DNA of 64,000 nucleotides from Eledone cirrhosa (Eukaryota). Both the position numbers and the translations under genes were made by a program. The notes beneath the pieces were generated by a model. The model was not told the DNA's origin. It saw only the letters and a program-made list of their open reading frames with translations, and searched no databases. Shown one piece after another: positions 13,401 to 62,070 of this stretch; within the stretch, counting starts at the first letter, position 1, and each line of letters starts with the position of its first letter. Location of the stretch: the NCBI GenBank assembly GCA_964016885.1, contig OZ024741.1, positions 380,246,001 to 380,310,000 on the forward strand. Direction: 5' to 3'.

Positions 13401-13438
<38 letters not shown>

Positions 13439-19565: not shown

Positions 19566-22500
19566 GGGGAAGAAGCTGCACATGGTGGATGGAAGGTCGT
19601 GAAATCGCTCCCGTAAGTTTTGCTTTTTAACATATTTGAATCAATTGTGAAATAGCAATTCTTAGTACAAATGATACATAAGGCATGCGACTTGAGTCTC
19701 AGAAAAATTCGGATCCATAATATATTGTTATATCGCTCAAATATTCAATTTTGTATTATACATTTTATATTCAAAAAAGAAAATGGTTATAAATGGAAGA
19801 AAACACCCTCTGTCTACACTATATAGAACAGCCAAATAACAGCAATTTCACCAACACCAGAAACTAGATACACCACCTACCCCATTACCCCTCTGTGTAC
19901 ACTAAATACAACAGCCAGATAACGGCAATTTCACCACCACCACCACCAATCTCAGCATAATAATATTAATTACTATTATTATTGTCTCAAGTTTTCACAA
20001 AATGTTTAATTCCAATATTAAGTAAAAAAATGTCAACACATATACGCGACTAACCCCATAGATTCACCGATCAAACAAAAATACAGTCTATTCAACAAAA
20101 CTCAGTAACGACAACGCCATCACTACAGTCACCGCCGCTGCCACCCATCCATCATTACTACCACTATGCCATCACCGCGGCCACCACTCCTTCATTGCTA
20201 CCACCGCTATCCCCCCATTACCTTCTGTTAACTTACGAAAGGGGAAGGTGGCTAACACTAGACAACATTAATAAACAAGATTAATATTTAATTTTGGACC
20301 AGGAATGTTAGAGTTGAAAAGCAGAAAAATGGCAAAATGACTAAATAACTAAAGATAATTTCACCACCAACACCACCACCACTACCACGATGAAAACTCT
20401 GGTCAAATCGACTCAACCGCTATTTCTACTCCAACTTCAACACCATCACTACAGTACTACGATAACATCACCACCACCACTGCCTCATTATCGCTACCGC
20501 CGCTATTCTCTCCCACAACCTCCTGCTAGTTGCTGCAAGCACAGTACCGCGACCACCATCACCACCACTGCCTCATTATCACTACCGCCGCTATTCTCTC
20601 CCGCTACCCCCTGCTACATCGTAGTGTCCCCACTAAAAGAGGAAGGCATCAAAATATATAAATAGACTGAATTGATGACCCGGTCAAAATCAAAAAACCA
20701 AAAGTCAAAATCAAAGAAGCACAGCAACAACGAAAAACGTAAAGAAAAGAAAAATGAAGAGAAAAACAAACAGACGGACAGAGAAGGGAAGGGAAAAACT
20801 AAGTCAGACATTCAAATATTACATTACAATGAAACTTATGCTTATTCATTTTTTTTTTTTTGGGGGGGGGGGGGTTGCTTGTTTGTTTGTTTGTTTATTT
20901 ATGTTCGTCTACATCGTGATAATGCCACACAAAAATTACCGGAGATGATGAGGTCACCGGTGGTTATGTAACCATACATTCGCAAATCCTCGATAAGAGT
21001 GTTTAAATGTCGAACCTAAACAGTTCGAATAACGGTGAAATGGAGACTAGAATGTCATGTGACAGACTCTCACCCAACAGGTGCTTCCTGGCTCAGCAGC
21101 AGGGACCTGGCTGTCAACCAAATACTGCTGGTGTCGGAGGAGGAAGAAGAAGGAAAGGGAACAGAACCAACTGGACGAAAGAATTGAATAGAACTGTTAT
21201 GCAATGTTACCTGAAGGGTAACCCCAAGGAGAAAGGCTATAGGAAACGGATGCATAACATCTGGAACGAGATTGGTCTATTTAAATTAGATGAACAAAAA
21301 TTGGCCGGGCAGGCTCGGGTAATAAGAACTAATGGGTGGATAAGCGAGTTGGAACTGGAGGAACTGAGCAGAGAGATTAGCTTGGAGATGGAGAGTGGAG
21401 TATGCCAGGCAAACGAGCCAGTGGGAAATGAAGGTGAAGAGGTCGAGAGAACGGAGGAACCACCCGAAGCAGACAATGATCTGAATACTGAGATAAATAA
21501 TACCTGGAACAGAGATACGGCCACTGAGGAGATGAATGCTGACGGGCTAAGACAAGATTTGGTTGATATCCTAAACTTAGTGGTAGATGAATTGAACAAT
21601 GATAGTGGGAGACCTATGAACCTAAGATTTGTAGGCAGGAAAAAGGTGAAAGAAACAACAGCTAAGGTAAACAAAGTCATCCCATACCTTGAGGCCAGGT
21701 GCCTTCACAAGTGCAAAAATATCCTCAAAGCAACAGCAAATACGGTGCGGAAACTACTTGGTATAAAAGCGAGAGGAAACAACAGACAAGAAAGATCAGA
21801 GCCTTGGTGGAAGAAACGACTGAGTGGTCAAATCAGGGAAATGAGAAATAAAATTGGAAAGCTTGAGACCCTACTGAATGGGACACTAAAAAACATAGAC
21901 ACTAAAAATAGACTAGAAATAAAGTAAACACTAGGAGGAAAAAGCTAAATATTATCATAGAGGAACGGAAGCAACGCATTGTAGCAAAGAGTGCAAAAAT
22001 CAGGCGATACGAGAAGAGAGTCAGTCAGTATAGACAGAACCGCATGTTCGACAACAACCAGAAGATGCTGTTTGGACAGCTTGTTACAGGACGAACAGAA
22101 AGGATGCCAAAAGAAGTCACGTGGTACAAAGGACCAGTTACTTATTGATAAGATGGTAATGAGGAATTGCAAAAGGAGACACACTGGTCTTGCCATGGGA
22201 TGGATAGACTACAAAAAGGCATTTGACATGGTGCCTCATTCTTGGATCACCAAAAGCCTGGAGATCTTCAAGGTGGCAGATAATATCAGACAGTTGTTGG
22301 GCAAAAGTATGAAGTCCTGGGAAACAGAGTTAACATCAACTGGAGAATCCTTGGGAAGCGTGCAGATCAAGAGGGGTAACTTCCAGGGAGATAGTCTGTC
22401 CCCTCTGTTGTTTGTCCTTGCCATGATGCCCCTGACCAGTGTACTGCGAAGAGTGAGAGCAGGATACAGGTTGGGAAAGGGAGGGCTTACCATCAATCAC

Positions 22501-24020
22501 CTCCTCTTCATGGACGATCTTAAGCTCTTCGGGAAGAGTGAGAAGGAGTTGGATGTGCTTGTTGACACTGTCCGTATTTTCATCAATGATATATGTATGC
22601 AATTTGGTATTAGTAAGTGTGGAGTCATTGTGATGAAGAAGGGTATGTTGAGTAGAAGTAACGGAATCCAGGTACCAACCGGTGAGATGATAAAGGAAAT
22701 TGACTCTGAAGAAGGATACAAGTATTTGGGTGTTCTGGAGGCTGATGACATCAAGAATAAAAAAATGAAGGAATTGATAAGAACTGAATACATTCGGAGA
22801 GTAAGGAGCGTATTAAAGTCAGGTCTGAACAGTAGGAATGCCATAAGTGCAGTAAATTCCCGAGCTGTGTCTATTATTAGGTGCAGTGCGGGAATTCTGA
22901 GATGGAATGTTGCTGAACAAAAAGAAATGGATAGGAAGACTAGGAAGCAATTGACTATCTACAACATGTTCCATAACAGGAGTGATGTCGATAGACTCTA
23001 CTTAAGGAGATCTGAAGGTGGACGAGGTCTTATCAGCATAGAGGACTGTGTTCAGATGGAGAAAGACAACCTACACAAATACGTGACTGATAGTAAGGAG
23101 CCAATGCTCAGAACTGTACTGAAGGAGGGAACAATAGGCCAGGGGATGTCCAAGGAGGAAATAACATCAAGGAGAATGAGCAGCCTTCAGGAAAAATCCC
23201 TTCACAGTACCTCCTTTGAGAAAACTGAATTTAGAGATCCACAGACATGGAACTGGTTGAAAAGAGGAGACCTTAAAAAGGCTACAGAAGGAATGTTAAT
23301 GGCTGCGCAGGAGCAGGCCCTCAAAGCGAAGTGGTTGAAACACCATATTTACAAGGAGGAGGCTAGACCACTGTGCAGGATCTGTGGAGAGAGAGAGGAG
23401 ACTGTGACTCACATTGTATGCGAGTGTAAACACCTAGCCCAGACTCACTATAAGGGCTGGAGACATGATGTGATGGGCAGGGTGATCCACTGGCACCTAT
23501 GCAAAGTAAACAATTTACCACATTCTGAGAAGTGGTATGAGCATAAGCCAGAGTACGTGATAGAAAACGATCAGGTGAAGGTGCTGTGGGATTTTAGGAT
23601 ACAGACGGCGAAGAAACTGGAACACAATAGACCTGACCTGGTGGTTTTGGACAAAGAAAAAAGATCGTGCTTGATTGTGGATGTGGCCTGCCCATTCGAC
23701 ACGAGAATGCAAGAGAAGGAGAGGGAGAAAATTAACCGATACCAGGACTTAAAGTGGGAGGTAAAAAGGATTTCGAACTGCCATGAAGTCAAAGTGATCC
23801 CAATTGTCATAGGCGCACTAGGGACTATCTCAAAAAGTTTCCAGGATGCTTCAAGAAAATTGGCCCCTTCACGCTTTTTGGAACGCTTCAAAAGGCATGC
23901 TTGCTGGGAACAGCAAGAACCCTCCGATAAGTCCTGAATATCTGAGGCTGCAGGTAGTGGCTTGATATTCATTTCAAGAATCTTTCCAGTTAACTAACAT
24001 CAATGACTGAGATTCAAAGA
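19566..24020 (+). mobile_element. R4/Dong family A copy A1: about 1.4 kb leader plus ORF, with an internal deletion of about 0.5 kb near 22080
   Basis: (TAA)n on both sides; ORFs 21007-21927 and 21991-23937 are colinear with the 1130-aa ORF; FMDD, CCHC, RHD and PDLVV motifs present. Confidence 0.95.
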
Positions 24021-24298
24021 ATAATCATAATAGTAATAATAATAATAATAATATGTTTTTTTTATTAACCACAAGGGTTTACATAAAGTAGACATTAAGG
24101 ACAGTACAGGACAATACAGGACGGTACAAATGGGCATTTCTGCGTGTAAAAAAAACAGAGAATGAAATAAAATAACAAAGAAAAATTCCCCAATAGGGGG
24201 GAGACTTCCGAGGGACATTTGTTGAGAAAGGCCATTAAAAGACCACAGTGGCCCTGACCACCAGGGCAAGTGCACTCTCCCAGTTGTCCACCTTTAAT

Positions 24299-27200
24299 TT
24301 ACAGACACATACTCAGAGTAGGCCCATTCATTCAGGAGATACTTGCTTCTCTCACCCATCTTTCAACAAAATGCTGGGAAGAGAGCACTTCCCTCTCTAC
24401 CCTGATTTTCCTTTTCAGATGAAATTTGAAAAAGTTAATCAGGGCATCACCGAAGAGGTAAGTTCTCGTCTTCAGCACTTTCAAACGTGTCCTCCATACT
24501 ATCTCTTTCGCCATGGCCACCAGACAGATAAAAACTGCCTGCCCTTCCCGGCTAAAGTAAGGGGGCGGGGCAATTCTCACGATGGACTCAGCTGATAGCT
24601 GGATCCGTCCTACACGTGACAGCAGGTGTTCGACATAAACCCACAAGTCAGCAATGCTCGGACACTGGACGAGTGCGTGCAGGACGGTTTCGTCGCCCTG
24701 TGCGCATCTCGGACATGCCGGGCTGACGGCACCTCCATGCCTGTAAAGTTTATCCCGACCTGGCAAAGCACCCCGGTAGCACTGCCAGGCAAAGGGATTT
24801 CTGGAAGTTGTCCATAGGCCCCGGCCCGAAAGTCCTTCCGAAGAGATTGGCTAGTTAATTTTCGTTGACGCCTAGAGTTTCTCCAAGTACGTCGTCGCTC
24901 TTCCCCTCCACTAATCCCCTATAGAACGCCAAGGTGGAGTTTCCACCGATCACATTGCCCGATTGGTTGAGGCCTGTGAGCGCCTGAAGACATTCCAGTC
25001 TCCAAGCGCTCCCTCTCGGTCTTCGCTTGACCTAGGACTGCAGCTCCGTCAAGGAGACGAGCTGGGGAAAAACGTGTCTAGCAAACGGCGACCACACCTG
25101 ATCACCGTCGAGGAAGAGGTGGAGATGTCGTAGCCTGAGCGCGTGTCTGCGCATCATCAGCCACGGCATGCCCAGCCCTCCACGTAGCGGGTGTTGATAG
25201 CAGATGGACTGCCTGACCATCGGAGCGCGTCCTTTCCACAAGAAGCGAAAGAGCAAACGCTCCAGCGCAGTCAGGCGGGGCTTAGGACAAGGTAGGACGG
25301 TCAGGCGGTAGTAGATGACGGACGCGATGTACGCGTTAGCCACCTCCGCTCGACCTTTCACGGATAGCTTCCTCTCGGCCCATTTCTGGGTGAGAGAAGC
25401 CACCCTGCTCGTCACCTCGTCCCAGTTTTTGTCCGTCAGGAGGTCTGGACCGAACCAGACCCCTAGCAATTTAACCGGTCCGTCCGTACAGCGCCCGACG
25501 ACGCTGTTGGACGGCATGGACCTGCCTCTCCAGGTGCCGAGCTGCAGGCCCACTGACTTTTTCTGGTTGATCATTGCTCCTGTCACCTCTTCGTATTCTC
25601 TTAGTATAGTGCCGATCGCCTCGATGTGTTTGGCGTTCGACACCACTACGGTGACATCGTCGGCATATGCTGACACGGATCTTCCGCATCCGAGTTCGCG
25701 CGGGACCCCCCTCAACGACTCCAGTTTGTGCAGTAATGGCTCGAGAGTCAATACGTACAATAGGGACGAGAGGGGACATCCTTGGCGGACCGAGCGCATG
25801 ATGTTGAACGGTTCCGGAAGGTGACCGTTCACTCTCACTACAGAGCAGATGTCACTGTGCATGGCAGCAATCCAGCCTCTGAAGACGGGCCCAAAGCCAG
25901 CCGCCCGCAGGACTGCCGCTAGGTAACGATGGTCGACCCTATCGAAGGCTTTCGACAGATCTAAATTGATCAAAGACCCACCCGTGCCAGCTTCCCTAGC
26001 TACCCTCTCTACGATGTATCGCATGAGGTGGAGGTTGTCGTGGATGGATCTGTCGGGAATGGCGCATGTCTGTGCCTCTCCCACCAGACCACCAACGACA
26101 AGCGCCAACCTCTTTGCTAGCACCTTGGCCAAAATCTTGAACTCTGTGTTTAGCACAGTTATGGGCCTAAAATGATCTATGTTATCCCCCTTGTTCGGAT
26201 CCTTTCTCAGCAGCGCCACCGCTCCTCGGCTCACAGAGCTGGGAATCCTCCCGTTCTGTTGCCAGTTGCAGTAGACGTCCGCCAACAGGCCTCCGAACAA
26301 GTTTGGCATTTGTACGTAAAGTTCATAGGGCAGACCATCCAAACCAGGCGATTTACTCCTTGCGAAACTAGTCATTGCATCCCGTACTTCAGCGGTTGTT
26401 ATCGGCTTTTCGCAACACTCCGCCTCAGTGGCCGAAAGCCGCGGCAGTCCGTCGAGGTAGACACTAAAGTCAATCCCTCGATCCGGCCCGCCACTGCCCC
26501 CGAAAAGTTGAGCGAAGTGTCGCTGAAAAGATTCACACATTTGCCTGGGATCGAGTAGCATGCGCCCGTCGTGGTCCACCAAAGACCGGATCGTGGCTTT
26601 GTTGCCACGACGCGCCTGCGCCACTCGGGCCCGTTGAACGGCTTTCGTCCCCTCGTGTCTGAGAGCACGCACCCTAGCCCTGACAACGCAGCCTTCGTGC
26701 TTTGCATTGAAGAATTGGTCAAGGGCCAATTTCGACCACAAGTACGTCGGTCGCGATGCCTTTGCTAAGCGCCTCATCTAATTGTCTAACTAATTCTCCC
26801 TCTGCTCTATTTTTCTCTATTGCTAAAGTCTTACTAAACCTAATGGACTCTATTCTAATTGCTCTTTTCAGAGCAAACCACCACTTGTTGTTGACGATGG
26901 CCCCCGTCAACGCCCGCTTAACTAGTTCGCTAATCCGGTCTCTATAGGCCTTGCACGCTGGTAAGGACCCGTTTAGCTTCCAGTAGCCGGGTCCTCGTCT
27001 ATGAAGCCTATCTAAGTCAAGCACACAGATCACGAATTTGTGGTCCGTGTAGCTGACTATCTTGAATTGTGGACAGCCTATGCTAGACCTATCTATTTCC
27101 CTACAAAATACTCTATGTAGATATGATCTGGATGACCCTATGCGATTTGTCCAAGTCCACATTGGTACATTCGGGAAATTTATTCGGTACCTGTCAGACA

Positions 27201-27720
27201 GTTCAAAACGTCTGAGCAGGTTGGTGAGACTCTTGCACCTTCCTTCCCTATCCACTAATCCCACACAATCCCAGCGTGCATCTAAGATCCCGTTCCAGTC
27301 GCCCACTAACTCTAAAGAGCGGGACGTTCCAAGAAAGGTCTCCAGACGCCGGAAGAAATCAGGCCGCCCTGCTCCTGTCAGGGCATAGACGGCCACTAAC
27401 CTGAAAGCTTGCTCGTCTCGGGTGGTCACGTCCAGCACCACCAACTTACCTTCTGGGTCCAGGAAGATGGCCCGTATGGCAAGATCCAAACCTCTCCGAA
27501 AAATCACAGCAACTCCTCCCCCCGATCCCGGACGGCTGAAAGATGCGTACACATCGTAGCCGCCGAAGATCGGTGCGAAAGCCTGTGCTTCGGAGATTCT
27601 GGTCTCGCTGATGGCCACTACATCTATGTTTAGTGGCCTGAGGTCGTTGAGCAGGTGGCCCTGCTTCCATGACGACCCCAAGCCACGCGCATTTATGCTG
27701 CCTATTCTGAGTGAGGTCAT
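24299..27720 (-). pseudogene. T1 ORF2 (AP endonuclease, reverse transcriptase, Zn finger), disrupted
   Basis: APE motifs SINARGL, AISET, GDWN, TDHK. RT motifs KSPGLDGLPYE, FRPITVLNTEFKILAK, DLSKAFDRVDH, RQGCPLS, YADD. C-terminal CPRC..ETVLHALVQC. Frameshift near 26730; stop at 25032 where copy T2 has Trp. Confidence 0.93.
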
Positions 27721-27754
27721 GTTGAAAAGGAGTGGAAAAGATGGGAAAGACCAC

Positions 27755-29754
27755 TTACCTTACTTCTCGTAGGGGAAGGACGGTTTTTCCATCCTTTTCA
27801 CTGCTTGTGGCCTCCTCAGGAAGGATGTCCTTATAAATCCTCCTGGAGAGTGCTTGTCGGAAGTCTCCGATGTCTTTGGGGAATTTTTTTTTTAGTGTCA
27901 TGTACGTTTTCTGTGTGATGCGAGTGATTTGTATGTGTGGAGGTGGTGTGAATTTTGCGGTTGTTGTGTAGTCTTTTTCTGTGATGCTGGTGTTGTGTTG
28001 GATGTAGTGTAATAATTGCTTGTTGTTCAAATTTAATGCTGTGTAGTGTATATCGTTTTGGTTGTTTTGTTTTGTTTGCGTTTGTGGTGGGTTTGTTTCT
28101 GTTTCGCATTTTGGTGACTTTTGTGGTGTAGGTGATGGTGGTGTTGGGGTTAATGATGGTGATGGTGTTGGTGTTTGGGTTGATGGGGTTGGTGATGCTG
28201 GTGTGGATGGTGGCATATCTGTCCTAACTTTTTTGTTTCTTAGTTTATTTGTTTCCATCTGTATTTTGTTTTTGGAGGGGGAAGGAAGAGAATTTTTTCT
28301 TTTTTGGTTTCTTTTTTTTTCCTGATACCGTTTCCCACTCCTCGTCGTCACAATCTGTCTCCAGTTGTGATAGGCCGGGGAGTGGAAAATCCTCCACAGG
28401 CGTTAGTTTTGGTTGTGGCGTGGTGGCTGGTGTAGGCCGTGGTGCTAGTTCTGAAGCGTTGGGTGGTGGTGGTGTTGGTTTTGCTGGTGGTATTGGTGGT
28501 GTTGGTTTTGCTACTGCTGCTGGGGTTGTTGCTGTTATAGTTGCTTCTGTTGTTGCTGCTACAGTTGTTGCTGCCATCTCTGCTACTGGTGGTGTTGATG
28601 GTTGTGTCACTGGGGTGGGTAGGAGAGGTGGCCTCAACCTTTTAGCCTGAGGGCAGAAAGCCCCTAGGTGGGTTCCTTCACCACAAACGACACACCTAGG
28701 TCTTCTGCCCTCGACAATTACCGTGAGGTGGCTGCCGTCAGTGAGGTCTATTACCTCTGGGATCTCCTCAATGCTTTTTTGGTCCGCTTGGATCAGGAGC
28801 TCCATCCCAGATCCGGACCAGTTCTCCTGCTTTTCTTTTGCTATTGCTATTATCTTTGTGTTGGCTTCGATGCCGGCGAGGACAGCCGCTATTAGCCAGG
28901 GAATTTCGATGGCCGGTGGAACGTGGGTCATCCTGATCTTTACGAGTCTCTGGCCACAATAGCTTGGGACGAGTGTGAAGTCGTCACTTCTTAATGGGGC
29001 CATGGAGGGTTCTCTAGCCTCCTCTGGTGTTTCAAAGAACACGTCCACGGTTCCATACTTTTGCCCACGTCTGATGTGGGTTTTTCTTGCCCACACATGT
29101 CCCAAAGCTTTTTGGATTTGGGACTCGGATGCCCGTTCCACTCGGCGCGATTTTACATTTATTGTTCGATACGACACGGTGCATAGGCGCCGATGCTCCA
29201 TTTTATTTGGTGGGGGGGTGAGGCTGACCCTGTACCCATCTTTCTTTACCATTGGTTTGGCATTTTCTAAATCCTCCTGAGTTACCGTAAATGCTTTGAA
29301 CTGTTTTGCTACTCTGGCGAAACTGAGGGTGGTTTTTATAATGTCATTGTTGTTGTTGTTGCTATCGTTATTTGTGTTAATATTAATTTTAGTTTTCAGT
29401 TGTGGTGGTGGTGACGTCAGTCGTCTTTGGTGGGGAAGAGCCCATTTTGCTTGATTTCATTTCGACATCACGAGTTAATTTATTTTTTTCTTCTTTTGTT
29501 TCTGTTGTCGCGGTGGTGGTGGTGGGGGGGGGGGGGGTTGTCGCGGTGGTGGTGGTGGTGGAGGCTTTAACACCTGCAGTCATTGGTAATGGCGGGAAAT
29601 GAATGTCTGCCTGAGACAAATTTAAAATATTGCTACTGCTTATATTTTTTGTAGTGTTGGCAAACGTAGTAACATTTACAATGGTGGTGTCGGTGTGAGG
29701 TGTTAATATGTGAGAAAGGCTTTCAGCTGCTTGGTGCAGTGGTGAATTAGCCAT
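27755..29754 (-). pseudogene. T1 ORF1 (nucleic-acid-binding, CCHC knuckle, Pro/Thr-rich), frameshifted
   Basis: Pieces 29389-29754, 28245-29252 (RCVVCGEGTHLGAFC = Cx2Cx4Hx4C) and 27755-28351 are colinear in copy T2. One break is in an A-run near 28310. Confidence 0.82.
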
Positions 29755-29962
29755 TTTTTTTCAAAGAAATGTTTTGATAATCAAAAAAGTTTAAATTTTG
29801 GGCACAAGGCCCCAATCTTTTTGGGTGTCCTTTTCGGAAAACAATGTATGTGCGCTTATAAACAGTTAACAATAAAATTTTCCATAAATGACAATTTTTA
29901 ACAAACGGAAATAACAAACCTTTGCGGAGCTCACGATGATACGATTTACTACGTAGGTCGAC

Positions 29963-30036
<74 letters not shown>
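29963..30036. repeat. (TAA)n tract between the T1 5' end and the A2 5' end
   Basis: Directly visible; representative of the many TAA tracts at element junctions. Confidence 0.98.
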
Positions 30037-33000
30037 GGGAAGAAGACGCACGAGGTGGCGGAGGTCATGAAATCGCTCCCGTAAGTTTTGAATTTTTAAC
30101 ATATTTAAATCATTTGTGAAATAACAACTCTTAGTACAAATGCTACGTAAAGCAGCCGGCTTGAGCCCCAAAAAATTCGGACCAAAAATATATTGTTATA
30201 AGGCTCAAATATTCAAATATTCAACTTTGTATTGTACACTGTATATCCAAAAAAGAAAATGGCTATAAATGGAAGAAGAAGCCCCCCCCCCTCCTCTCCT
30301 CTGTCTACACTATATAGAACAGCCAAACTCACCAACACCAGAAACTAGGTACACCACCCACCTCATCACCTGTGTACACTAAACACAACAGCCAGATAAC
30401 GGCAATTTCACCACTACCGCTCACTACTGCCATCATTACCACCACTATCCCATCACCACTCCTTCACACCTTCACTGCTACCACCGCTACAACACCATCA
30501 CCACAGTAATACGATCACATCGCCACCACCACTACCTCGGTATCGACATCACCACCACCACTGTCTCAGTATCGCTACCGCCGCCATTCCTCCACTCTTC
30601 AAGCTGGCTGCTGCCACCACATTATAGAATTCCTACTAATAAAAAAGAGGAAGGCATCAAAATAAATATATAGATAGACTCAAAAGAAAAAAGAAAAAAC
30701 AAACAACAAACCAAAGCAGCACAGCAACAACAGCAAAAAACGTGAAAAACAAACAGAGAAAAACAAAAACAAAAAACGTAAAGAAAATAAGAATGAAAAG
30801 AGAAGCAGGCAGACGGACAGAGAAGAGGGGGGAAAAACTAAAACTAAAAAAACAAAAACTAAGTCAGACATTCGAACACTACGTTACAATGAAACTTATG
30901 CTTATTCGTTTTTGGGGCCCTTTCTGCCTGTGTGTTTGTTTGTTTATGTGTCTTCGTATACAGCGTGGTGATAATGCCACACAAGGGCCAAGTGGAACGG
31001 CGAATCCACAGATGGCTATGTAACCATACATTCGCCAATCCTCGATAAGAGTGTTTAAATATCAAACATAAACAGTTCGAATAACGGTGAAATGGAGACT
31101 AGAACGTCATGTGACAGACTCTCACCCAACAGGTGCCCCCTGGTTCAGCAGCAGGAACCTGACTGTCAACCAAATACTGCTGATGTTGGAGGAAGAAGAA
31201 GAAGGAAAGGGGCTAGAACCAACTGGACTAAAGAATTGAATAGAACTGTTATGCAATGTTACCTGAAACGTAACCCCAAGGGGAGGGGCTACAGGAGACG
31301 GATGCATAACATCTGGAACGAGATTGGTCTATTTAAATTAGATGAACAAAAATTGGCCGGGCAGGCTCGGGTAATAAGAACTAATGGGTGGATAAGCGAG
31401 CTGGAACTGGAGGAACTGAGCAGAGAGAATGGCTTGGAGATGGCGGGTGTAGTATGCCAGACAAGCGAGCCAGTGGGAAATGAAGGTGAAGAGGTCCTGA
31501 GAACGGAGGAACCACCCGAAGCAGACAATGATCTGAATACTGAGATAAATAATACCTGGAACAGAGATACGGCCACTGAGGAGATGAATGCTGACGGGCT
31601 AGGACAAGATTCGGTTGACATCCTAAATTTAGTGGTAGATGAATTGAACAATGATAGTGGGAGACCTATGAACCTAAGATTTGTAGACAGGAAAAAGTTA
31701 AAAGAAACAACAGCTAAGGTAAACAAAGTCATCCCATACCTTGAGGCGAGGAGCCTTCACCAGTGCAACAATATCCTCAAAGCAACAGCAAATACGGTGA
31801 GGAGACTACTTGGTATAAAAGCGAGAGGAAACAACAGACAAGAAAGAGCAGAGCCTTGGTGGAAGAAACGACTGAGTGGTCAAATCGGGGAAATGAGAAA
31901 TGACATAGGAAAGCTTGAGTCACTACTGAATGGGACACTAAAAAACATAGGCACTAAAAATAGACTGGAAATAAAGTACAAAACTAGGAGGAAAAAGCTA
32001 AATATTATCATAGAGGAACTGAAGCAACGCATTGTAGCAAAGAGTGCAAAAATCAGGCGATACGAGAACAGAGTCAGTCAGTATAAACAGAACCGCATGT
32101 TCGACAACAACCAGAAGATGCTGTTTGGACAGCTTGAGGGGAAAGAAAGAGGCAACGACTTGATCCCTGAGGCGGAACAAACTAAAACATTCCGGAGATG
32201 AATATGGGAGGAGGATGTTAAACATAATGACCAGGCAGTGTGGATTGAGACAGTACAAAAGGAGATTAGTGAACAGGCACGCCAACAAGCTGATTTGAGT
32301 ATCACAGTTGAAACTCTTAAGGGGCAGGCCAAAAAACTAACCAACTGGAAATCACCTGGCCCAGATGGTGTGCAGGGGTATTGGATTAAAAACATAACAT
32401 CCCTCCACCCGAAACTGACAACCATGTTCAATGACTACTTGATGTCAGGTGAGGTACCAGAGTGGTTAACAAAAGGTACCACAGTTCTGATAATGAAAGA
32501 CCGAACCAAGGGTAATGATGTTACCAACTATAGATCTATCACATGTCTGTCCGTAATGTGGAAACTGTTGACAAGCATTATGTCTAAGGAAATCTACCAT
32601 CACCTCCACACAAACAACTTGTTACCGGACGAACAGAAAGGATGCCAAAAGAAGTCACGTGGTACAAAGGACCAGTTACTTATTGATAAGATGGTAATGA
32701 GGAATTGCAAGTGGAGACACACTGGTCTTGCCATGGGATAGATAGACTACAAAAAGGCATTTGAAATGGTGCCTCATTCTTGGATCACCAAAAGCCTGGA
32801 GATCTTCAAGGTGGCAGATAACATCAGGCAGTTGTTGGGCAAAAGTATGAAGTCCTGGGAAACAGAGTTAACATCAACTGGAGAATCCTTGGGAAGCGTG
32901 AAGATCAAGAGAGGTATCTTCCAGGGATATAGTCTGTCCCCTCTGTTGTTTGTACTTGCCCTGATGCCCCTGACCAGTGTACTGCGAAAAGTGAGAGCAG

Positions 33001-34558
33001 GATACAGGTTGGGAAAGGGAGGGCTTACCATCAATCCCTCCTCTTCATGGACGATCTTAAGCTCTTCGGGAAGAGTGAGAAGGAGTTGGATGTGCTTGTT
33101 GACACTGTCCGTATTTTCAGCAATGATATATGTATACAATTTGGTAGTAGTAAGTGTGGAGTCATTGTGATGAGGAGGGGTAAGTTGAGCAGAAGTAACG
33201 GAATCCAGATACCAACAGGTGAGATGATAAAAGAAATTGACTCTGAGGAAGGATACAAGTATTTGGGCGTTCTGGAGGCTGATGACATAAAGAACAAAAA
33301 AATGAAGGAATTGTTAAGAACTGAATACATTCGGAGAGTAAGGAGCGTATTGAAGTCACATCTGAACAGCAGAAATGCCATAAGCGCAGTAAATTCCCGA
33401 GCTGTGTCTATTATTAGGTACAGTGCGGGAATTCTGAGATGGAATGTTGCTGAACAAAAAGAAATGGATAGGAAGACTAGGAAGCTATTGACTATCTACA
33501 ACATGTTCCACAAGAGGAGTGATGTCGATAGACTCTACCTAAGGAGATCTGAGGGTGGAAGAGGTCTTATCAGCATAGAGGACTGTGTTCAGATGGAGAA
33601 AAACAACCTATACAAATACGTGACCTATAGTAAGGAGCCAATGCTCAGAACTGTACTGAAGGAGGGGACAGTAGGCCAGGGGATGTCCAAGGAGGAAATG
33701 ACATCAAGGAGGAAGAGCAGCCTACAGGGAAAATCCCTTCATAGTACCTTCTTTGAGAAAACTGAATTTAGAGATCCACAGACATGGAACTGGTTGAGAA
33801 GAGGAGACCTCAAAAAGGCTACAGAAGGAATGCTAATGGCTGCGCAGGAGCAGGCCCTCAAAGCGAAGTGGTTGAAGCACCATATTTACAAGGAGGAGGC
33901 TAGCCCACTGTGCAGGATCTGTGGAGAGAGAGAGGAGACTGTGGCTCACATTGTGTCCGAGTGTAAACACCTAGCCCAGACCCACTATAAGGGCTGGAGA
34001 CACGATGTGATGGGCAGGGTGATCCACTGGCACCTGTACAAAGTAAACAATTTACCACACTCTGAGAAATGGTATGAGCATAGGCCAGAGGCGGTGATGG
34101 AGAACAATCAGGAGAAGGTGCTGTGGGATTTTAGGATACAGAGGGACAAAAAACTGAAACACAATAGACCTGACCTGGTGGTTGTGGACAAAGAAAAAAG
34201 ATCGTGTCTGATTGTGGATGTGGCCTGCCCTTTCGACACGAGAGTGCAAGAGAAGGAGAGGGAGAAAATTAACCGATACCAGGACCTAAAGTGGGAGGTA
34301 AAAAGGATTTGGAACTGCCATGAAGTCAAAGTGATCCCGATTGTCATAGGCGCACTGGGGACTATCTCCAAAAGTTTCCAGGGATGGTTAAAGAAAATCG
34401 GCCCCGTCACGCTTTTTGGAACGCTTCAAAAGGCATGCTTGCTTGGAACAGCAAGAACCCTCCGATACGTCCTGAATATCTGAGGCTGCAGGTAGTGGCT
34501 TGATATTCATTCCAACGAACTTTCCAGTTAACCAACATCAATGACTGAGATTCAAGGA
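30037..34558 (+). mobile_element. R4/Dong family A copy A2, full length with about 1 kb leader, ORF disrupted
   Basis: Starts gggaagaag like A1; ORF pieces 31092-32201, 32238-32741, 32766-33170 and 33047-34483. Confidence 0.95.
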
Positions 34559-34593
34559 ATAACAACAATATTAATAATAATAATAATAATAAT

Positions 34594-37500
34594 AAATCCT
34601 CGATAAGAGTGTTTAAATGTCCAACCTAAACAGTTTGAATAACGGTGAAATGGAGACTAGAATGTCATGTGACAGACTCTCACCCAACAGGTGCTCCCTG
34701 GCTCAGCAGCAGGGACCTGGCTGTCAACCAAATACTGCTGGTGTCGGAGGAAGAAGAAGAAGGAAAGGGACCAGAACCAACTGGACGAAAGAATTGAATA
34801 GAACTGTTATGCAATGTTACCTGAAGAGTAACGCCAAGGAGAAGAGCTATAGGAAAATGAGGCATAACATCTGGAACGAGATTGGTCTATTTAAATTAGA
34901 TGAACAAAAATTGGCCGGTCAGGCTCGGGTAATAAGAACTAATGGGTGGATAAGCGAACTGGAACTGGAGGAACTGGGCAGAGAGATTAGCTTGGAGATG
35001 GAGGGTGGAGTATGCCAGGCAAACGAGCCAGTGGGAAATGAAGGTGAAGAGGTCGAGAGAACGGAGGAACCACCCGAAACAGACAATGATCTGAATGCTG
35101 AGATAAACAATACCTGGAACAGAGATACGGCCACTGAGGAGATGAATGCTGACGGGCTAGGACAAGATTTGGTAGATATCCTAAACTTAGTGGTAGAAGA
35201 ATTGAACAATGATAGTGGGAGACCTATGAACCTAAGATTTGTAGACAGGAAAAAGTTAAAAGAAACAACAGCTAAGGTAAACAAAGTCATGCCATACTTT
35301 GAGGCGAGGAGCCTTCACCAGTGCAACAATATCCTCAAAGCAAGAGCAAATACGGTGAGGAAACTACTTGGTATAAAAGCGAGAGGAAACAACAGACAAG
35401 AAAGAGCAGAGCCTTGGTGGAAGAAACGACTGAGTGGTCAAATCAGGGAAATGAGAAATGACATTGGAAAGCTTGAGTCCCTACTGAATGGGACACTAAA
35501 AAATATAGACACTAAAAATAAACTGGAAATAAATTACAAAACTAGGAGGAAAAAGCTAAATATTATCATAGAGGAACTGAAGCAACGTATTGTAGCAAAG
35601 AGTGCAAAAATCAGGCGATACGAGAACAGAGTCAGCCAGTATAGACAGAACCGCATGTTTGACAACAACCAGAAGATGCTGTTTGGACAGCTTGAAGGGA
35701 AAGAAAGAGGCAACGACTTGATCCCTGAGGCGGAACATACTAAAACATTCCGGAGAGGAATATGGGAGGAAGATGTTAAACATAATGACCAGGCAGTGTG
35801 GATTGAGACAGTACAAAAGGAGATTAGTGAACAGGCACGCCAACAAGCTGATTTGAGTATCACAGTTGAAACTCTTAAGGGGCAGGCCAAAAAACTAACC
35901 AACTGGAAATCACCAGGCCCAGATGGTGTGCAGGAGTATTGGATTAAAAACATAACATCCCTCCACCCGAAACTGACAACCATGTTCAATGACTGCTTGA
36001 TGTCAGGTGAGGTACCAGAGTGGTTGACAAAAGGTACCACAGTTCTGATAATGAAAGACCGAACCAAGGGTAATGATGTTACCAACTATAGATCTATCAC
36101 ATGTCTGTCCGTAATGTGGAAACTGTAGACAAGCATTATGTCTGAGGAAATCTACCATCACCTCCACACAAACAACTTGTTACCGGACGAACAGAAAGGA
36201 TGCCAAAAGAAGTCACGTGGTACAAAGGACCAGTTACTTATTGATAAGATGGTAATGAGGAATTGCAAGTGGAGACACACTGGTCTTGCCATGGGATGGA
36301 TAGAATACAAAAAGGCATTTGAAATGGTGCCTCATTCTTGGATCACCAAAAGCCTGGAGATCTTCAAGGTGGCAGATAACATCAGGCAGTTGTTGGGCAA
36401 AAGTATGAAGTCCTGGGAAACAGAGTTAACATCAACTGGAGAATCCTTGGGAAGCGTGAAGATCAAGAGAGGTATCTTCCAGGGATATAGTCTGTCCCCT
36501 CTGTTGTTTGTACTTGCCCTGATGCCCCTGACCAGTGTACTGCGAAAAGTGAGAGCAGGATACAGGTTGGGAAAGGGAGGGCTTACCATCAATCACCTCC
36601 TCTTCATGGACGATCTTAAGCTCTTCGGGAAGAGTGAGAAGGAGTTGGATGTGCTTGTTGACACTGTCCGTATTTTCAGCAATGATATATGTATACAATT
36701 TGGTAGTAGTAAGTGTGGATTCATTGTGATGAGGAGGGGTAAGTTGAGCAGAAGTAACGGAATCCAGATACCAACAGGTGAGATGATAAAAGAAATTGAC
36801 TCTGAGGAAGGATACAAGTATTTGGGCGTTCTGGAGGCTGATGACATCAAGAACAAAAAAATGAAGGAATTGATAAGAACTGAATACCTTCGGAGAGTAA
36901 GGAGCGTATTGAAGTCACATCTGGACATAAGGAATGCCATAAGTGCAGTAAATTCCCGAGCTGTGTCTATTATTAGGTACAGTGCAGGAATTCTGAGATG
37001 GAATGTTGCTGAACAAAAATAAATGGATAGGAAGACTAGGAAGCTATTGACTATCTACAATACGTTCCACAAGAGGAGTGATCTCGATAGACTCTACTTA
37101 AGGAGATCTGAAGGTGGAAGAGGTCTTATCAGCATAGAGGACTGTGTCCAGATGGAGAAAAATAACCTACACAAATACGTGACTGATAGTAAGGAGCCAA
37201 TGCTCAGAACTGTACTGAAGGAGGGGACAATAGGCCAGGGGATGTCCAAGGAGGAAATACATCAAGGAGAAAGAGCAGCCTTCAGGAAAAATCCCTTCAT
37301 AGTACCTCCTTTGAAAAAACTGAATTTAGAGATCCACAGACATGGAACTGGTTGAAAAGAGGAGACCTTAAAAAGGCTACAGAAGGAATGTTAATGGCTG
37401 CGCAGGAGCAGGCCCTCAAAACGAAGTGGTTGAAGCACCACAATTACAAGGAGGAGGCTAGCCCACTGTGCAGGATCTGTGGAGAGAGAGGAGACTGTGG

Positions 37501-50523: not shown

Positions 50524-50555
50524 ATAATCATAATAGTAATAATAATAATAATAAT

Positions 50556-53500
50556 ATGTTTTTTTTATTAACCACAAGGGTTTACATAAAGTAGACATTA
50601 AGGACAGTACAGGACAATACAGGACGGTACAAATGGGCATTTCTGCGTGTAAAAAAAACAGAGGATGAAATAAAATAACAAAGAAAAATTCCCCAATAGG
50701 GGGGAGGCTTCCGAGGGACATTTGTGGAGAAAGCCCATTAAAAGACCACAGTGGCCCTGACCACCAGGGCAAGTGCCTCTCCCAGTTTTCCACCTTTAAT
50801 TTACAGACACATACTCAGAGAAGGCCCATTCATTCGGGACATATTTGCTTCTCTCACCCATCTTTCAACAAAATGCTGGGAAGAGAGCACTTCCCTCTCT
50901 GCCCTGATTTTCCTTTTCAGATGAAATTTGAAAAAGTTAATCAGGGCATCACCGAAGAGGTAAGTGCTCATCTTCAGCCCTTTCAAACGTGTCCACCATA
51001 CTATCTCTTTCGCCATGGCCACCAGACAGATAAAAACTGCCTGCCCTTCCCGGCTAAAGGAAGAGGGTGGGGCAATCCTCACGATGGACTCAGCTGATAG
51101 CTGGATCCGTCCTACACGTGACAGCAGGTGTTCGACATAAACCCACAAGTCAGTAATCCTCGGACACTGGACGAGTGCGTACAGGACGGTTTCGTCGGAC
51201 TGTGGGCATCTCGGACATGCCCCGCTGACGGCACGTCCATGCCTGTCGAGTTTATCCCGAACTGGCAAAGCTCCACGGTAGCACTGCCAGGCCAGGGATT
51301 TCTGGAAGTTGTCCATAGGCCCCGGCCCGAAAGTCCTTCCTAAGAGATTGGTTAGTTGATTTTCGTCGACGCCTAGAATTTCTCCAAGTACGTCGTCGCT
51401 CTTACCCTCCACTAATCCCCTATAGAACGCCAAGGTGGAGTTTCCACCGATCACATTGCCCGATTGGTCGAGGGCTGTGAGCGCCTGAAGACATTCCAGT
51501 CTCCAAGCGCTCCCTCTCGGTCTTCGCTTGACCCAGGACTGCAGCTCCGTCAAGGAGACGAGCTGGGGAAAAACGTGTCTAGCAAATGGCGACCACACCT
51601 GATCACCGTCGAGGAAGAGGTGGAGATGTCGTAGCCTGAGCGCGTGTCTGCGCATCATCAGCCACGGCATGCCCAGCCCTCCACGTAGCGGGTGTTGACA
51701 GCAGATGGACCTCCTGATCATCGGAGCGCGTCCCTTCAATAAGAAGCGAAAGAGCAAACGCTCCAGCGCAGTCAGGCGGGGCTTAGGACAAGGTAGGACG
51801 GTCAGGCGGTAGTAGATGACGGACGCGATGTACGCGTTAGCCACCTCCGCTCGACCTTTCACGGATAGCTTCCTCTCGGCCCATTTCTGGGTGAGAGAAG
51901 CCACCCAGCTCGTCACCTCGTCCCAGTTTTTGTCCGTCTTGAGGTCTGGACCGAACCAGACCCCTAGCAATTTAACCGGTCCGTCCGTCCCGCGCCCAAC
52001 GACGCTGTTGGACGGCATGGACCTGCCTCTCCAGGTGCCGAGCTGCAGGCCCACTGACTTTTCCTGGTTGATCATTGCTCCTGTCACCTCTTCGTATTCT
52101 CTTAGTATAGTGCCGATCGCCTCGATGTGTTTGGCGTTCGACACCACTACGGTGACATCGTCGGCATATGCTGACACGGATCTTCCGCATCCTAGTTCAC
52201 GCAGGACCCCCCCTCAACGTCTCCGGTTTGTGCAATAATGGCTCGAGAGTCAATACGTACAATAGGGACGAGAGGGGACATCCTTGGCGGACCGAGCGCA
52301 TGAAGTTGAACGGTTCCGAAAGGTGACCGTTCCCTCTCACTACAGAGCAGATGTCGCTGTGCATGGCAGCGATCCAGCCTCTGAAGACGGGCCCAAAGCC
52401 AGCCGCCCTCAGGACTGCCGCTAGGTAACGATGGTCGACCCTATCGAAGGCTTTCGACTGATCTAAATTGATCAAAGACCCACCCGTGCCATGTTCCCTA
52501 GCTACCCTCTCTACGATATATCGCATGAGGTGGAGGTTGTCGTGGATGGATCTGTCTGGAATGGCGCATGTCTGTGCCTCTCCCACCAGACCACCAACGA
52601 CAAGCGCCAACCTCTTTGCTAGCACCTTGGCCAAAATCTTGAACTCTGTGTTTAGCAGAGTTATGGGCCTAAAATTATCTATGTTATCCCCCTTGTTCGG
52701 ATCATTTCTCAGCAGCGCCACCGCTCCTCGGCTCACAGAGCTGGGAATTCTCCAGCTGAGCGAAGTGTCGCTGAAAAGCTTCCCACATTTGCCCGGGATC
52801 GAATAGCATGCGCCCGTCGTGGTCCACCAAAGACCGGATCGTGGCTTTGTTGCCACGACGCGCCTCCGCCACTCGGACCCATTGAACGGCTTTCGTCCCC
52901 TCGTGTCTGAGAGCACGCACCCTAGCTCTGACAACGCAGCCTACGTGCTTTTCATTGAAGAATTGGTCAAGGGTCAATTTCGCCGCAATTACGTCGGTCG
53001 CGATGCCTTTGCTAAGCGCCTCGTCTAATTTTCTAACTAATTCTCCCTCTGCTCTATTTTTCTCTATTGCTAAAGTCTTACTACACCTAATGGAATCTAT
53101 TCTAATTGCTCTTTTTGAAGATGGCCCCCGTCAACGCCCGCTTAACTAGTTCGCTAATCCGGTTTCTGTAGGCCTTGCGCGCTGGTAAGGACGCGTTTAG
53201 CTTCCAGTAGCCGGGTCCTCGTCTATGAAGCCTATCTAAGTCAAGCACACAGATCACGAATTTGTGGTCCGTGTAGCCTACTATCTTGAATTGTGGACAG
53301 CTTATACTAGACCTATCTATTTCCCTACAAAATACTCTATCTAGATATGATCTGGATGACCCTATGCGATTTGTCCAAGTCCACATTGGTACATTCGGGA
53401 AATCCATTCGGTACCTGTCAGACAGTTCAAAACGCCTGAGCAGGTTGCTGAGACTCTTGCACCCTCCTTCCCTATCCACTAATCACACACAATCCCAGCG

Positions 53501-56171
53501 TGCATCTAAGATCCCGTTCCAGTTGCCCACTAACACTAAAGAGCGGGACGTTCCAAGAAAGGTCTCCAGACGCCGGAAGAAATCAGGCCGCCCTGCTCCT
53601 GTCAGGGCATAGACGCCCACTAACCTGAAAGCTTGCCCATCTCCGCTGGTCACGTCCAGCACCACCAGCTTACCTTCTCTTCTGGGTCCAGGAATATGGC
53701 CCGTATGGCAAGATCCAAACCTCTACGAAAAAGCACAGCAACTCCTCCCCCCGATCCCGGACGGCTGGGAGATGCGTACACATCGTAGCTGCCGAAGGTC
53801 GGTGCGAAGGCCCGAGCTTCGGAGATTCTGGTCTCGCTGATGGCCACTACATCTATGTTTAATGACCTGAGGTCGTTGAGCAGGTGGCCCTGCTTCCATG
53901 ACGACCCCAAGCCACGCGCATTTATGCTGCCTATTCTGAGTGAGGTCATGTTGAAAAGGAGTGGAAAAGATGGGAAAGACCACTTACCTTACTTCTCGTA
54001 GGGGAAGGACGGTTTTTCCATCCATTTCACTGCTTGTGGCCTGCTCAGGAAGGATGTCCTTATAAATCCTCCTGGAAAGTGCTTGTCGGAAAGCTCCGAT
54101 GTCTTTGGGGAATTTTTGTTTTAGTGTCATGTACGTTTTCTGTGTGATGCGAGTGATTTGTATGTGTGGAGGTGGTGTGAATTTTGGGATTGTTGTGTAG
54201 TCTTTTTCTGTGATGCTGGTGTTGTGTTTGATGTAGTGTAATAATTGCTTGTTGTTCAAATTTAATGCTGTGTAGTGTGTATCGTTTTGGTTGTTTTGTT
54301 TTGTTTGCGTTTGTTGTGGGCTTGTTTCTGATTCGCATTTTGGTGACTTTTGTGGTGTAGGTGATGGTGGTGTTGGGGTTAATGATGGTGATGGTGTTGG
54401 TGTTTGGGTTGATGGGGTTGGTGATGCTGGAGTGGATGGTGGCATATCTGTCCTAACTTTTTTGTTTGTTAATTTATTTGTTTCCCTCTGTATTTTGTTT
54501 TTGGAGGGGGAAGGAAGAGAATTTTTTTCTTTTTTGGTTTCTTCTTTTTTTTCCTGATACCGTTTCCCATTCCTCGTCGTCTCAATCTGTCTCCAGTTAT
54601 GATAGGCCGGGGAGTGGAAAATCCTCCACAGGCGTTAGATTTGGTTGTGGCGTGGTGGATGGTGTAGGCGCTGGTGCTAGTTCTGAAGCGTTGGGTGGTG
54701 GCAGTGTTGGTTTTGCTGGTGGTGGTGGTGTTGGTTTTGCTACTGTTGCTGGGGTTGTTGCTTTTATAGTTGCTTCTGTCGTTGCTGCTACAGTTGTTGC
54801 TGCCATCTCTGCTACTGGTGGTGTTGATGGTTGTGCAACTGGTGTGGGTAGGAGAGGTGGCCTCAACCTTTTAGCCTGAGGGCAGAAAGCCCTTAGGTGG
54901 GTTCCTTCACCACAAACGACACACCTAGGCCTTCTTGCTCGACAATTACGGTGAGGTGGCTGCCGTCAGTGAGGTCTATTACCTCTGGGATCTCCTCAAT
55001 GCTTCTTTGGTCCGCTTGGATCAGGAGCTCCATCCCAGATCCGGACCAGTTCTCCTGCTTTTCTTTTGCTATTGCTATTATCTTTGTGTTGGCTTCGATG
55101 CCGGCGAGGACGGCCACTATTAGCCAGGGAATTTCGATGGCCGGTGGAACGTGGGTCACCCTGATCTTTACGAGTCTCTGGCCACAATAGCTTGGGACGT
55201 GTGTGAAGTCGTCACTTCTTAATGGGGCCATGGAGTGTTCTCTAGCCTCCTCTGGTGTTTCAAAGAACACGTTCACGGTTCCATACTTCTACCCACGTCT
55301 GATGTGGGTTTTTCTTGCCCACAAATGTCCCAAAGCTTTTTGGATTTGGGACTCGGATGCCCGTTCCACTCGGCGCGATTTTACATTTATTGTTCGATAC
55401 GACACAGTGCATAGGCGCCGATGCTCCATTTTATTAGGTGGGGGGTGAGGCTGGCCCTGTACCCATCTTTCTTTACCATTTGTTTGGCATTTTCTAAATC
55501 CTCCTGAGTTACCGTAAATGCTTCGAACTGTTTTGCTACTCTGGCAAAACTCAGGGTGGTTTTTTAATGTCATTGTTGTTGTTGTTGCTATCGTTATTTT
55601 TGTTATTATTAATTTTAGTTTCAGTTGTGGTGGTGGTGACGTCAGTGAAATTCTGTTTGGGAGAGTCCATTTTTGTTGAAAATATTTCGACATCACGAGT
55701 TGATTTATTTTTTCCTTTTGTTTCTGTTGTCGCGGTGGTGGGAGGGGGGTGTTGTCGCGGTGGTGGTGGTGGCGGCTTTAACACCTGCAGTTATTGGTAA
55801 TGGCGGGAAATGAATGTCTGCCTGAGACAGATTTAAAATATTGCTAGTGCTTAAATTGTGTGTGTTGGCAGACGTAATATCATTTACAATGGTGGTGTCG
55901 GTGTGAGGTGTTAATTTGTGAGAAAGGCTTTCAGCTGCTTGGTGCAGTGGTGAATTAGCCATTTTTTTTTCAAAGAAATTTTTTGATAATCATAAAAGTT
56001 TAAATTTTGGGCACAAGACACCAATCTTTTGGGGTGTCCTTTTCGGAAAACAATGTATGTGCGCTTATATATAGTTAACAATAAAATTTTCCATAAATGG
56101 CAATTTTTTACACACGGAAATAACAAACCTTTGCGGAGCTCACGATGACACGATTTACTACGTAGGTCGCC
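50556..56171 (-). mobile_element. Tx1/L1-clade element copy T2, both ends present, internal deletion of about 250 bp near 52753
   Basis: Colinear with T1; ORF2 pieces from 53949 to 50801 (YADD in 50801-52177) and ORF1 pieces from 55962 to 53984. Confidence 0.95.
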
Positions 56172-56205
<34 letters not shown>

Positions 56206-56225
56206 TTAATAATAATAATAATAAT

Positions 56226-62033: not shown

Positions 62034-62068
<35 letters not shown>

Positions 62069-62070
<2 letters not shown>

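Follow-up and report, generated by a model that had tools for sequence, protein, structure and literature searches.

Is a retrotransposon that lies between two tracts of one microsatellite aimed at that repeat, or is the repeat something that the element brings with it? The question is raised by T1, a long interspersed nuclear element (LINE) in a 64,000-nucleotide stretch of the Eledone cirrhosa genome (contig OZ024741.1 of assembly GCA_964016885.1, positions 380,246,001 to 380,310,000 of the forward strand), which we call the window. A first-pass annotation, made from the letters of the window, had described T1 as a Tx1-type element with an apurinic/apyrimidinic endonuclease (APE), apparently specific for (TTA)n and convergent in this respect with elements of the Dong type, which carry a restriction-like endonuclease (RLE). 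In our judgement it is highly probable that T1, a dead copy of full length, belongs to an abundant lineage of APE-type, Tx1-like LINEs that sits within (ATT)n/(AAT)n in one orientation, likely by way of a nick at T^A on the AAT strand and pairing of the AUU end of its RNA.

Repeat flanks of the lineage across the genome

The search space was the 3.0-Gb assembly, in which a 21-base motif from the 3' end of the element occurs 9,671 times (4,969 + 4,702) and its reversed control 0 times. Extrapolated from these hits, the lineage would make up ~1% of the genome. The first 100 places of the motif in order along 44 Mb of contig 1, not ranked by their likeness to T1, served as our sample (L numbers denote single loci). 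Exact (ATT)4 stands directly downstream in 80 of these copies, ATTATT in 90 and ATTAT in 92, and the final C of the element is found in 95. The control consisted of 200 kb at round coordinates on 8 contigs, that is 400,000 position-strands, and (ATT)4 follows 61 of these (0.015%). TTA/TAA tracts make up 0.17% of the control bases (17 tracts, 345 bases, with an average of ~7 units). The enrichment at 3' ends is ~5,000-fold over random positions, and the link between the element and the ATT repeat is far beyond chance. When copies are chosen by likeness, a TTA/ATT repeat follows directly on all 30 of the best matches to the last 300 nt of T1, and the sequence beyond it differs by copy.

The 5' ends give the same picture. 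The repeat directly precedes 29 of the 30 best matches to the first 300 nt of T1, the exception being L040. Two families can be told apart by their starts. Full-length copies of family A, to which T1 belongs (start GGCGACCTACG), account for 39 of the 100 sampled copies, and all 39 have an ATT-type repeat directly upstream, with at least four perfect adjacent units in 36 and an imperfect tract in 3. Family B (start GAATGCCATGG) has at least four perfect ATT units before each of 24 5' ends, taken from 21 sampled copies and 3 downstream neighbours. The repeat is thus present at 63 of 63 full-length 5' ends, which argues that it is a target and not a tail alone. Both families share one phase, ATT|G at the 5' end and C|ATT at the 3' end, and in 34 full-length copies the median length of the flanking tract is 12 units on the upstream side and 13.5 on the downstream side. 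A family has been called target-specific when one kind of sequence makes up >20% of its flanks (PMC4494074); here the microsatellite occupies 80 of 100 3' flanks and every full-length 5' flank, against 0.015% at random. The (TTA)n specificity put forward in the first-pass annotation is therefore seen genome-wide and at both ends, and the flanks of the sampled copies are mostly ATT repeats, not the diverse sequence that was to count against it.

LINEs with a simple-repeat tail always show the repeat at their 3' end, and the ATT repeat might be such a tail and nothing else, with insertion sites otherwise unselected. Among the 37 sampled copies other than full-length A or B, about half look like this, having a long 3' tract and no ATT repeat at the upstream break. 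We nonetheless consider this explanation very improbable, given the repeats directly before all full-length 5' ends, beyond which the sequence is diverse, and given a set of off-repeat insertions (L083, L087, L114, L115, L118 and L122) with 0-2 ATT units and no long tail. L114 and L115 lie outside repeats with a 7-bp duplication, ATTATAT, and L122 likewise with a 16-bp duplication, ATTATTGTTGTTGGTG; all three duplications begin with ATTAT. L097 is located inside (ACT)n. A long ATT tail is missing from L097, L114, L115 and L122 alike, so the element does not simply bring such a tail along.

Co-transcription with the target is common among site-specific LINEs. Both repeats could then travel in the transcript, the whole unit landing at any ATTAT site and only mimicking insertion into a microsatellite. 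A short site could indeed suffice, as ATTAT begins 92 of the 100 3' flanks, and the median tracts on both sides exceed the control average. However, no duplication is found outside the tracts: in the 25-nt outer flanks of the 34 copies the mean longest common word is 4.12, compared with 4.13 for mismatched pairs. The outer flanks are no more alike than mismatched pairs, so the mobile unit is not the repeats within a larger duplication. In addition, the upstream tracts range from 4 to 27 units, and ~30 of the 100 downstream tracts were already there as tails of Dong copies in inverted orientation. Carriage of both repeats therefore seems to us decidedly unlikely.

A third possibility is that copies have spread mainly as DNA, by tandem or segmental duplication or by unequal exchange within microsatellite arrays. 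The window holds a clear case. Two further copies of the lineage, T2 and T3, lie to the right of T1 (Table 1). T2 is 94-96% identical to T1 and has (AAT)n at 50523-50557 and 56172-56227; its 3' flank is that of T1 to the letter (AATAATCATAATAGT(AAT)6AT), the imperfections of the tract at 24020-24054 being repeated identically and the odd junction being the same. The match between 22076-26251 and 48577-52753 extends the duplication to part of the surroundings, and beyond the 5' repeat the flanks of T1 and T2 are different. This identical imperfect flank, with its odd junction, indicates that T1 and T2 go back to one insertion, duplicated afterwards. T3, 91% identical to T1, differs from them in its junction and in its tail variant (..AAAGC), which leaves two independent events in the window. 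Here the first-pass annotation had reasoned correctly, and the tracts and ends that it reported, with the microsatellite on both sides of T1 and T2 and T3 at a different 3' junction, are confirmed.

Besides T1 and T2, which share 8 kb of flank, L020 and L021 have flanks in common, and many copies are ~6 kb apart. That said, the motif has thousands of hits, the sample is spread along 44 Mb of contig 1, the listed copies fall on at least 14 contigs, and the unique flanks are diverse. Past the downstream tract, the neighbours of the 100 sampled copies include the 3' end of an inverted Dong copy in ~30 cases, the 5' end of family A in 12 and that of family B in 6, and members of families A, B, C and D stand head to tail in mixed arrays. 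Such mixtures are impossible by duplication and need repeated independent insertions into the same tract. As a general account, spread as DNA is contradicted and has next to no chance of being right; it is valid for single cases such as T1 and T2.

A further 13 of the 100 downstream neighbours are the starts of two other recurring elements, directly after ATT tracts. One begins with GGTCTAAGCGGACG (3 of 100; L095, L127 and L130), the other with ACAGTTGCATTTATCTTGC (10 of 100; L082, L125, L131, L194, L198 and L205), so more families use the ATT repeat. Two repeat families also end in an ATT tract on the strand of the LINE, namely ..GCACTGTACACAATATTTC in the 5' flanks of L121, L123 and L060, and ..AAAGTAGAAACA in those of L073, L118, L126 and L127. 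They are candidate partners of the SINE (short interspersed nuclear element) type.

A proposed cut at T^A and what weighs against it

How might one element arrive at the same phase on both sides? The (ATT)n/(AAT)n duplex has one TpA step per unit, common to both strands. A downstream flank that starts with ATT would imply a bottom-strand primer end ...AAT-3' and hence a nick 5'-AAT^AAT, and an upstream flank that ends with ATT would imply a top-strand break 5'-ATT^ATT. A single rule, a cut at T^A, could account for both junction phases. The target duplication would then consist of whole ATT units and so be invisible, and it would help to explain why the flanking tracts are longer than those of the control. 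The conserved AATAAA 6 nt before the end of the element would place RNA cleavage inside the downstream repeat, and a transcript ending in AUU units could pair with the ...AAT-3' primer in the way that poly(A) serves L1. As each insertion would leave repeat on both sides, targets would be regenerated and arrays could grow. Dong, with its RLE, would use the same duplex from the other strand.

The logic that we propose is that of mammalian L1, whose endonuclease nicks 5'-TTTT^AA and whose poly(A) pairs with the T-rich primer: a nick at T^A yields a primer 3' end that pairs with the repeat at the end of the RNA. Human ORF2p aligns to the second open reading frame (ORF2) of the T1 lineage over residues 5-855. 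L1 copies are mostly truncated, whereas ~60 of the 100 sampled copies of the T1 lineage are full-length, which is unusually many for a LINE; the lineage also differs from L1 in having AUU as its repeat instead of poly(A) and a single microsatellite as its target.

Several observations weigh against our interpretation. Exact (ATT)4 is absent from 20 of the 100 3' flanks and ATTAT from 8, and we therefore speak of a strong preference and not of absolute specificity. Thirty-seven of the 100 copies are neither full-length A nor full-length B, and ATT repeats stand at the point where likeness to T1 breaks off in only ~9 of them; the remaining breaks adjoin other sequence, among it (CTT)n, TAACCC repeats and unique DNA. 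Empty sites were not seen, and the prior existence of each repeat is read from the flanks alone. ATT flanks were found at 0 of 14 inspected metagenome loci with distant relatives (25-53% identity), but these are single contigs, which cannot define a target, and the result carries little weight. Membership of the Tx1 clade is based on bit scores and domain order and not on a tree. Finally, the positions of the nicks, the 3' end of the RNA and the respective roles of the APE and of RNA-primer pairing are all inferred, not observed. The nuclease and this pairing may each contribute to the specificity.

The copies without (ATT)4 also bear on a fourth explanation, a loose taste of the L1 kind for T^A within AT-rich DNA, in which the excess would come from the number of sites per tract, from RNA-primer pairing and from growth of the repeat after insertion, with no evolved specific nuclease. 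The off-target copies fit it, with L097 lying in (ACT)n and short ATTAT sites holding L114, L115 and L122, as does the junction rule itself, T^A being the step that the L1 endonuclease cuts. Yet the ~5,000-fold enrichment is large, the choice of strand is strict, and copies are found next to other AT-rich repeats, (AT)n for example, but not inserted in them. We regard a loose taste as an unlikely explanation, and prefer targeting of the ATT repeat.

Some of the non-full-length breaks may be family boundaries, SINE-like bodies or the result of later insertions and deletions. Breaks recur at T1 nt 2239-2283, where ORF2 starts in more divergent families, and at nt 5532-5546, and such recurrent breaks are probably family boundaries or short non-autonomous derivatives rather than truncations. 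At the second of these start L076, L194, L100 and L122, units of ~350-380 nt that contain nothing but roughly the last 350 nt of the LINE and are preceded by sequence other than ATT; they may represent a non-autonomous derivative, or else the tail of a SINE with a 3' end borrowed from the LINE. (CTT)n stands at the 5' break of L106 and L109, and telomere-like TAACCC repeats at that of L130.

A wider account can be drawn from these results, to which we give an even chance of holding as a whole. In it, an octopod APE-type lineage would be a strand-specific homing element of (ATT)n, with at least two mosaic autonomous families and probable short riders, ~10^4 mostly full-length copies and ~1% of the genome. 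One T^A rule and an AUU RNA end would account for both junctions, and the niche would be shared with, and regenerated alongside, the unrelated Dong from the opposite strand. The lineage would be the first TAA/ATT-specific member of Tx1, and the first case of APE and RLE elements occupying one repeat together. It adds a new target variant to a clade whose target specificity is well known, and no new principle.

Relatives and known target-specific elements

In T1 itself, Pfam places Exo_endo_phos, RVT_1 and zf-RVT in this order along ORF2. The frame is spread over three reading frames, which means at least two frameshifts and a dead copy. An intact genomic ORF2 (L065; 1,139 aa) gives clearer matches: Exo_endo_phos at residues 22-210 (E 6.9e-14), RVT_1 at 511-754 (E 1e-28) and zf-RVT at 974-1026 (E 9.3e-8, 33 bits), with an endonuclease that aligns to L1 endonuclease structures. 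By its domains, the T1 lineage is an APE-type (L1-group) retrotransposon without long terminal repeats, as the first-pass annotation had it. Elements of the R4/Dong kind have a single ORF, with a restriction-like endonuclease C-terminal to the reverse transcriptase, and (TAA)n behind the 3' end of the sense strand; T1 has an N-terminal APE and carries ATT, not TAA, on its sense strand.

The L065 ORF2 is closest to one protein with which it shares 79% identity, and next to one from Argonauta hians (69%); a large group at ~40% follows, and then vertebrate proteins at ~29%, the YTX2 protein of Polyodon among them. The best named relative is the Transposon TX1 149 kDa protein of Xenopus laevis (325 bits, E 3e-91). 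Human L1 ORF2p scores 185 bits against the L065 ORF2 and 263 bits against Xenopus Tx1, and this triangle of bit scores fits a placement of the T1 lineage and Tx1 as sisters. The Tx1 affinity claimed at first pass is in keeping with these bit scores. Tx1 members have two ORFs, the first with a nucleic-acid-binding module, in many of them a CCHC knuckle. In the T1 lineage ORF1 precedes ORF2, is 689-707 aa long in family B and contains a conserved core of 200 aa with a CX2CX4HX4C knuckle; no Pfam family matches it.

The two families are related in an uneven way. Beginning at T1 nt 2161, shortly before ORF2, and on through ORF2 and the 3' untranslated region (UTR), family B is ~94% identical to T1. 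Its first 2.2 kb, with the leader and ORF1, are unrelated to T1 (window 27802-29962) at the DNA level, and the 200-aa ORF1 cores of the two families have 54% protein identity. The mosaic was seen with the family B copies L098, L099, L110, L113 and L223. It points to recombination or a swap of modules between LINE families. From its open frames the lineage looks recently active: ORF2 is uninterrupted at 1,139 aa in 14 of the 100 sampled copies, of which five, all of family B, also have an ORF1 of the length given above, and a 1,152-aa open frame is found in about half (36) of 75 scored protein matches.

Matches outside this genome are of several kinds. Contigs of four other organisms contain the 3' 850 nt of T1 at 85-99% likeness, and these end at the repeat edge near 24069, so that neither flanks nor empty sites are visible in them. 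A scan of metagenome contigs found 31 relative loci at 21-53% identity, of which L157 has a poly(A) end and L162 contains (AT)27. A search of the ESM Atlas returned only clusters of reverse transcriptase (RT) or APE type without taxa. L1-Tx1 families have been annotated in octopus genomes (PMC13282606, PMC8967140), where both L1-Tx1 and Dong-R4 are listed as abundant and recently active, the available portions of these reports leaving targets unstated (PMC13282606, PMC8967140, PMC9115989). In molluscs, too, L1-Tx1 is reported to be widespread (PMC10294476).

Sequence-specific targets are well documented in the Tx1 clade. They include the Tx1D DNA transposon, U2 small nuclear RNA genes (Keno), (TC)n (Kibi) and (TTC)n (Koshi), and in crocodilians (TTCC)n, (TTTC)n and several transposons (PMC4494074). 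Kibi and Koshi, from teleosts, and the crocodilian families are likewise APE-type and use one type of microsatellite each (PMC4494074). The target of the T1 lineage, (ATT)n/(TAA)n, differs from theirs in not being pyrimidine-rich, and its host is a cephalopod; the identity to vertebrate Tx1-type proteins is only ~29%. Tx1L of Xenopus laevis (YTX2_XENLA) has 29% identity over 83% of ORF2, the same APE-RT-zinc order and a specific site, but its target is Tx1D, unlike the microsatellite of the T1 lineage (PMC4494074). The Drosophila I factor has an A/T trinucleotide repeat at its 3' end, in the form of a TAA sense-strand tail (PMC3747384). In contrast, the T1 lineage has ATT on its sense strand and has it before its 5' ends too, where a tail-only pattern of the I-factor type would leave none. 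Full-text searches of the literature, which did not extend to Repbase or Dfam, turned up no TAA/TTA-specific Tx1 member.

Target-specific LINEs illustrate how a retrotransposon gets aimed at a harmless site, and they are studied as models of how genes might be inserted at chosen sites. The APE and the restriction-like nuclease, on one repeat but on opposite strands, form a natural pair for dissecting whether the choice of sequence and strand lies in protein or in RNA. The T1 lineage is large and partly intact, with junctions that are precise to the single base, and the predicted nick, AAT^AAT, is directly testable with a recombinant domain. The lineage also explains part of the structure of this genome, in the form of long mixed LINE arrays on ATT repeats, one of which fills most of the window. 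Arrays strung on ATT repeats complicate assembly, microsatellite markers and the annotation of repeats in cephalopods.

Layout of the window and its Dong-type neighbours

The rest of the region is largely made up of plus-strand elements that end in (AAT)n, at 24053, 34595, 38131, 50556, 57452, 61585 and 62069. The ORF of such a neighbour matches the RT of R2 and, in addition, a restriction-like endonuclease region (PDB 9nl3, residues 1049-1118). Judged by these ORFs, the plus-strand neighbours with a (TAA)n tail are of the Dong/R4 type, and Dong targets (TAA)n in most insects, molluscs and cnidarians (PMC7998251). The repeat that holds T1, in inverted orientation, has the 3' end of one Dong copy on one side and on the other the 5' end of the next, which reads GGGAAGAAGACGCACGAGG / GGGAAGAAGACG and abuts the repeat on the 5' side of T1. 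This 5' end recurs, also inverted, beside ATT tracts in L132, L210 and L216. Among the first 60 loci, a strict motif for Dong ends is inverted relative to the Tx1-like copies in 12 cases and direct in 1 (L102).

The two kinds of element share the same duplex target and, in the window, the same arrays. Dong has its restriction-like endonuclease C-terminal to the RT, unlike the N-terminal APE of the T1 lineage, and its polarity on the repeat is opposite. The likeness is one of convergence on a target and not of kinship. The convergence with an RLE-type element proposed at first pass is accordingly upheld by the R2-type neighbours, their (TAA)n ends and their orientation. Of the opposite-strand priming that went with it, the orientation is confirmed, and we infer the priming itself. 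In L102 (G000:C1:24836874-24843324) a Dong 3' end with (AAT)n stands directly upstream of a 257-nt LINE 3' fragment and in the same orientation; (ATT)n follows the fragment downstream, so that the repeat is inverted across it.

Table 1. Positions in the window of T1, its parts, the two related copies and the adjoining Dong-type elements
Feature	Position	Strand	Remarks
T1, full-length dead Tx1-like LINE copy, family A	24055..29962	-	5,908 nt; ends read from sequence
5'-flanking microsatellite of T1, perfect (AAT)24.7	29963..30036		Tandem Repeats Finder (TRF) and sequence
Imperfect (AAT)n on the 3' side of T1, tail of the left-hand Dong-type copy	24020..24054		sequence
T1 5' UTR	29755..29962	-	~208 nt; begins GTCGACCTACG; family form GGCGACCTACG
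T1 ORF1 remnants	27755..29754	-	three pieces (29389-29754, 28245-29252, 27755-28351)
T1 ORF2 start and APE endonuclease domain	26719..27720	-	Exo_endo_phos, E 1.2e-6 (Pfam)
T1 ORF2 reverse transcriptase part	25032..26777	-	RVT_1, E 4.1e-29 (Pfam)
T1 ORF2 C-terminal part, zinc-binding zf-RVT	24302..24766	-	26 bits, slightly below the curated cut-off
T1 3' UTR	24055..24301	-	short AACC/GGTT stem, AATAAA, ..AAC end
T2, more decayed duplicate of the T1 insertion	50558..56171	-	5,614 nt
T3, 3' part of an independent copy	62070..64000	-	ends at the window edge
Perfect (AAT)12 at the 3' junction of T3	62034..62069
Dong-type LINE copy whose (TAA)n tail received T1	20794..24019	+	ORF 21991-23937 with RT and R2-like endonuclease region
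Next Dong-type copy	30037..34595	+	3' end with (AAT)n

The tract at 29963-30036 is (ATT)n when read on the strand of T1, and the first ATG of ORF1 lies at 29754. The 3' end of T1 (...GGTTAATAAAAAAAAC) is placed at 24055 by the junction seen throughout the family, 2 nt further inside than in the first-pass annotation (24053..29962), whose 5' limit stands. The tail of the family is AATAAAGAAA(A/T/G)C, without poly(A); the short A-run that had been noticed at the 3' end is present in T1 and T2 as a change private to these two copies and is not a feature of the family. The fold of the last 147 nt of T1 is not unusual (z -1.05). The 4-bp stem AACC/GGTT before AATAAA (24057-24075, reverse strand) becomes GGCC/GGCC in a variant tail, CCCTGTGGCCAATAAA, found in L091 and L101; these two compensatory pairs hint at a small conserved 3' hairpin.

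Further TAA/AAT tracts occur at 13402, 14867 and 19505 in the part of the window between 13402 and 20214, beside pieces that are 82-90% identical to the Dong-type copies. The stack of elements thus reaches to the left of the T1 region.

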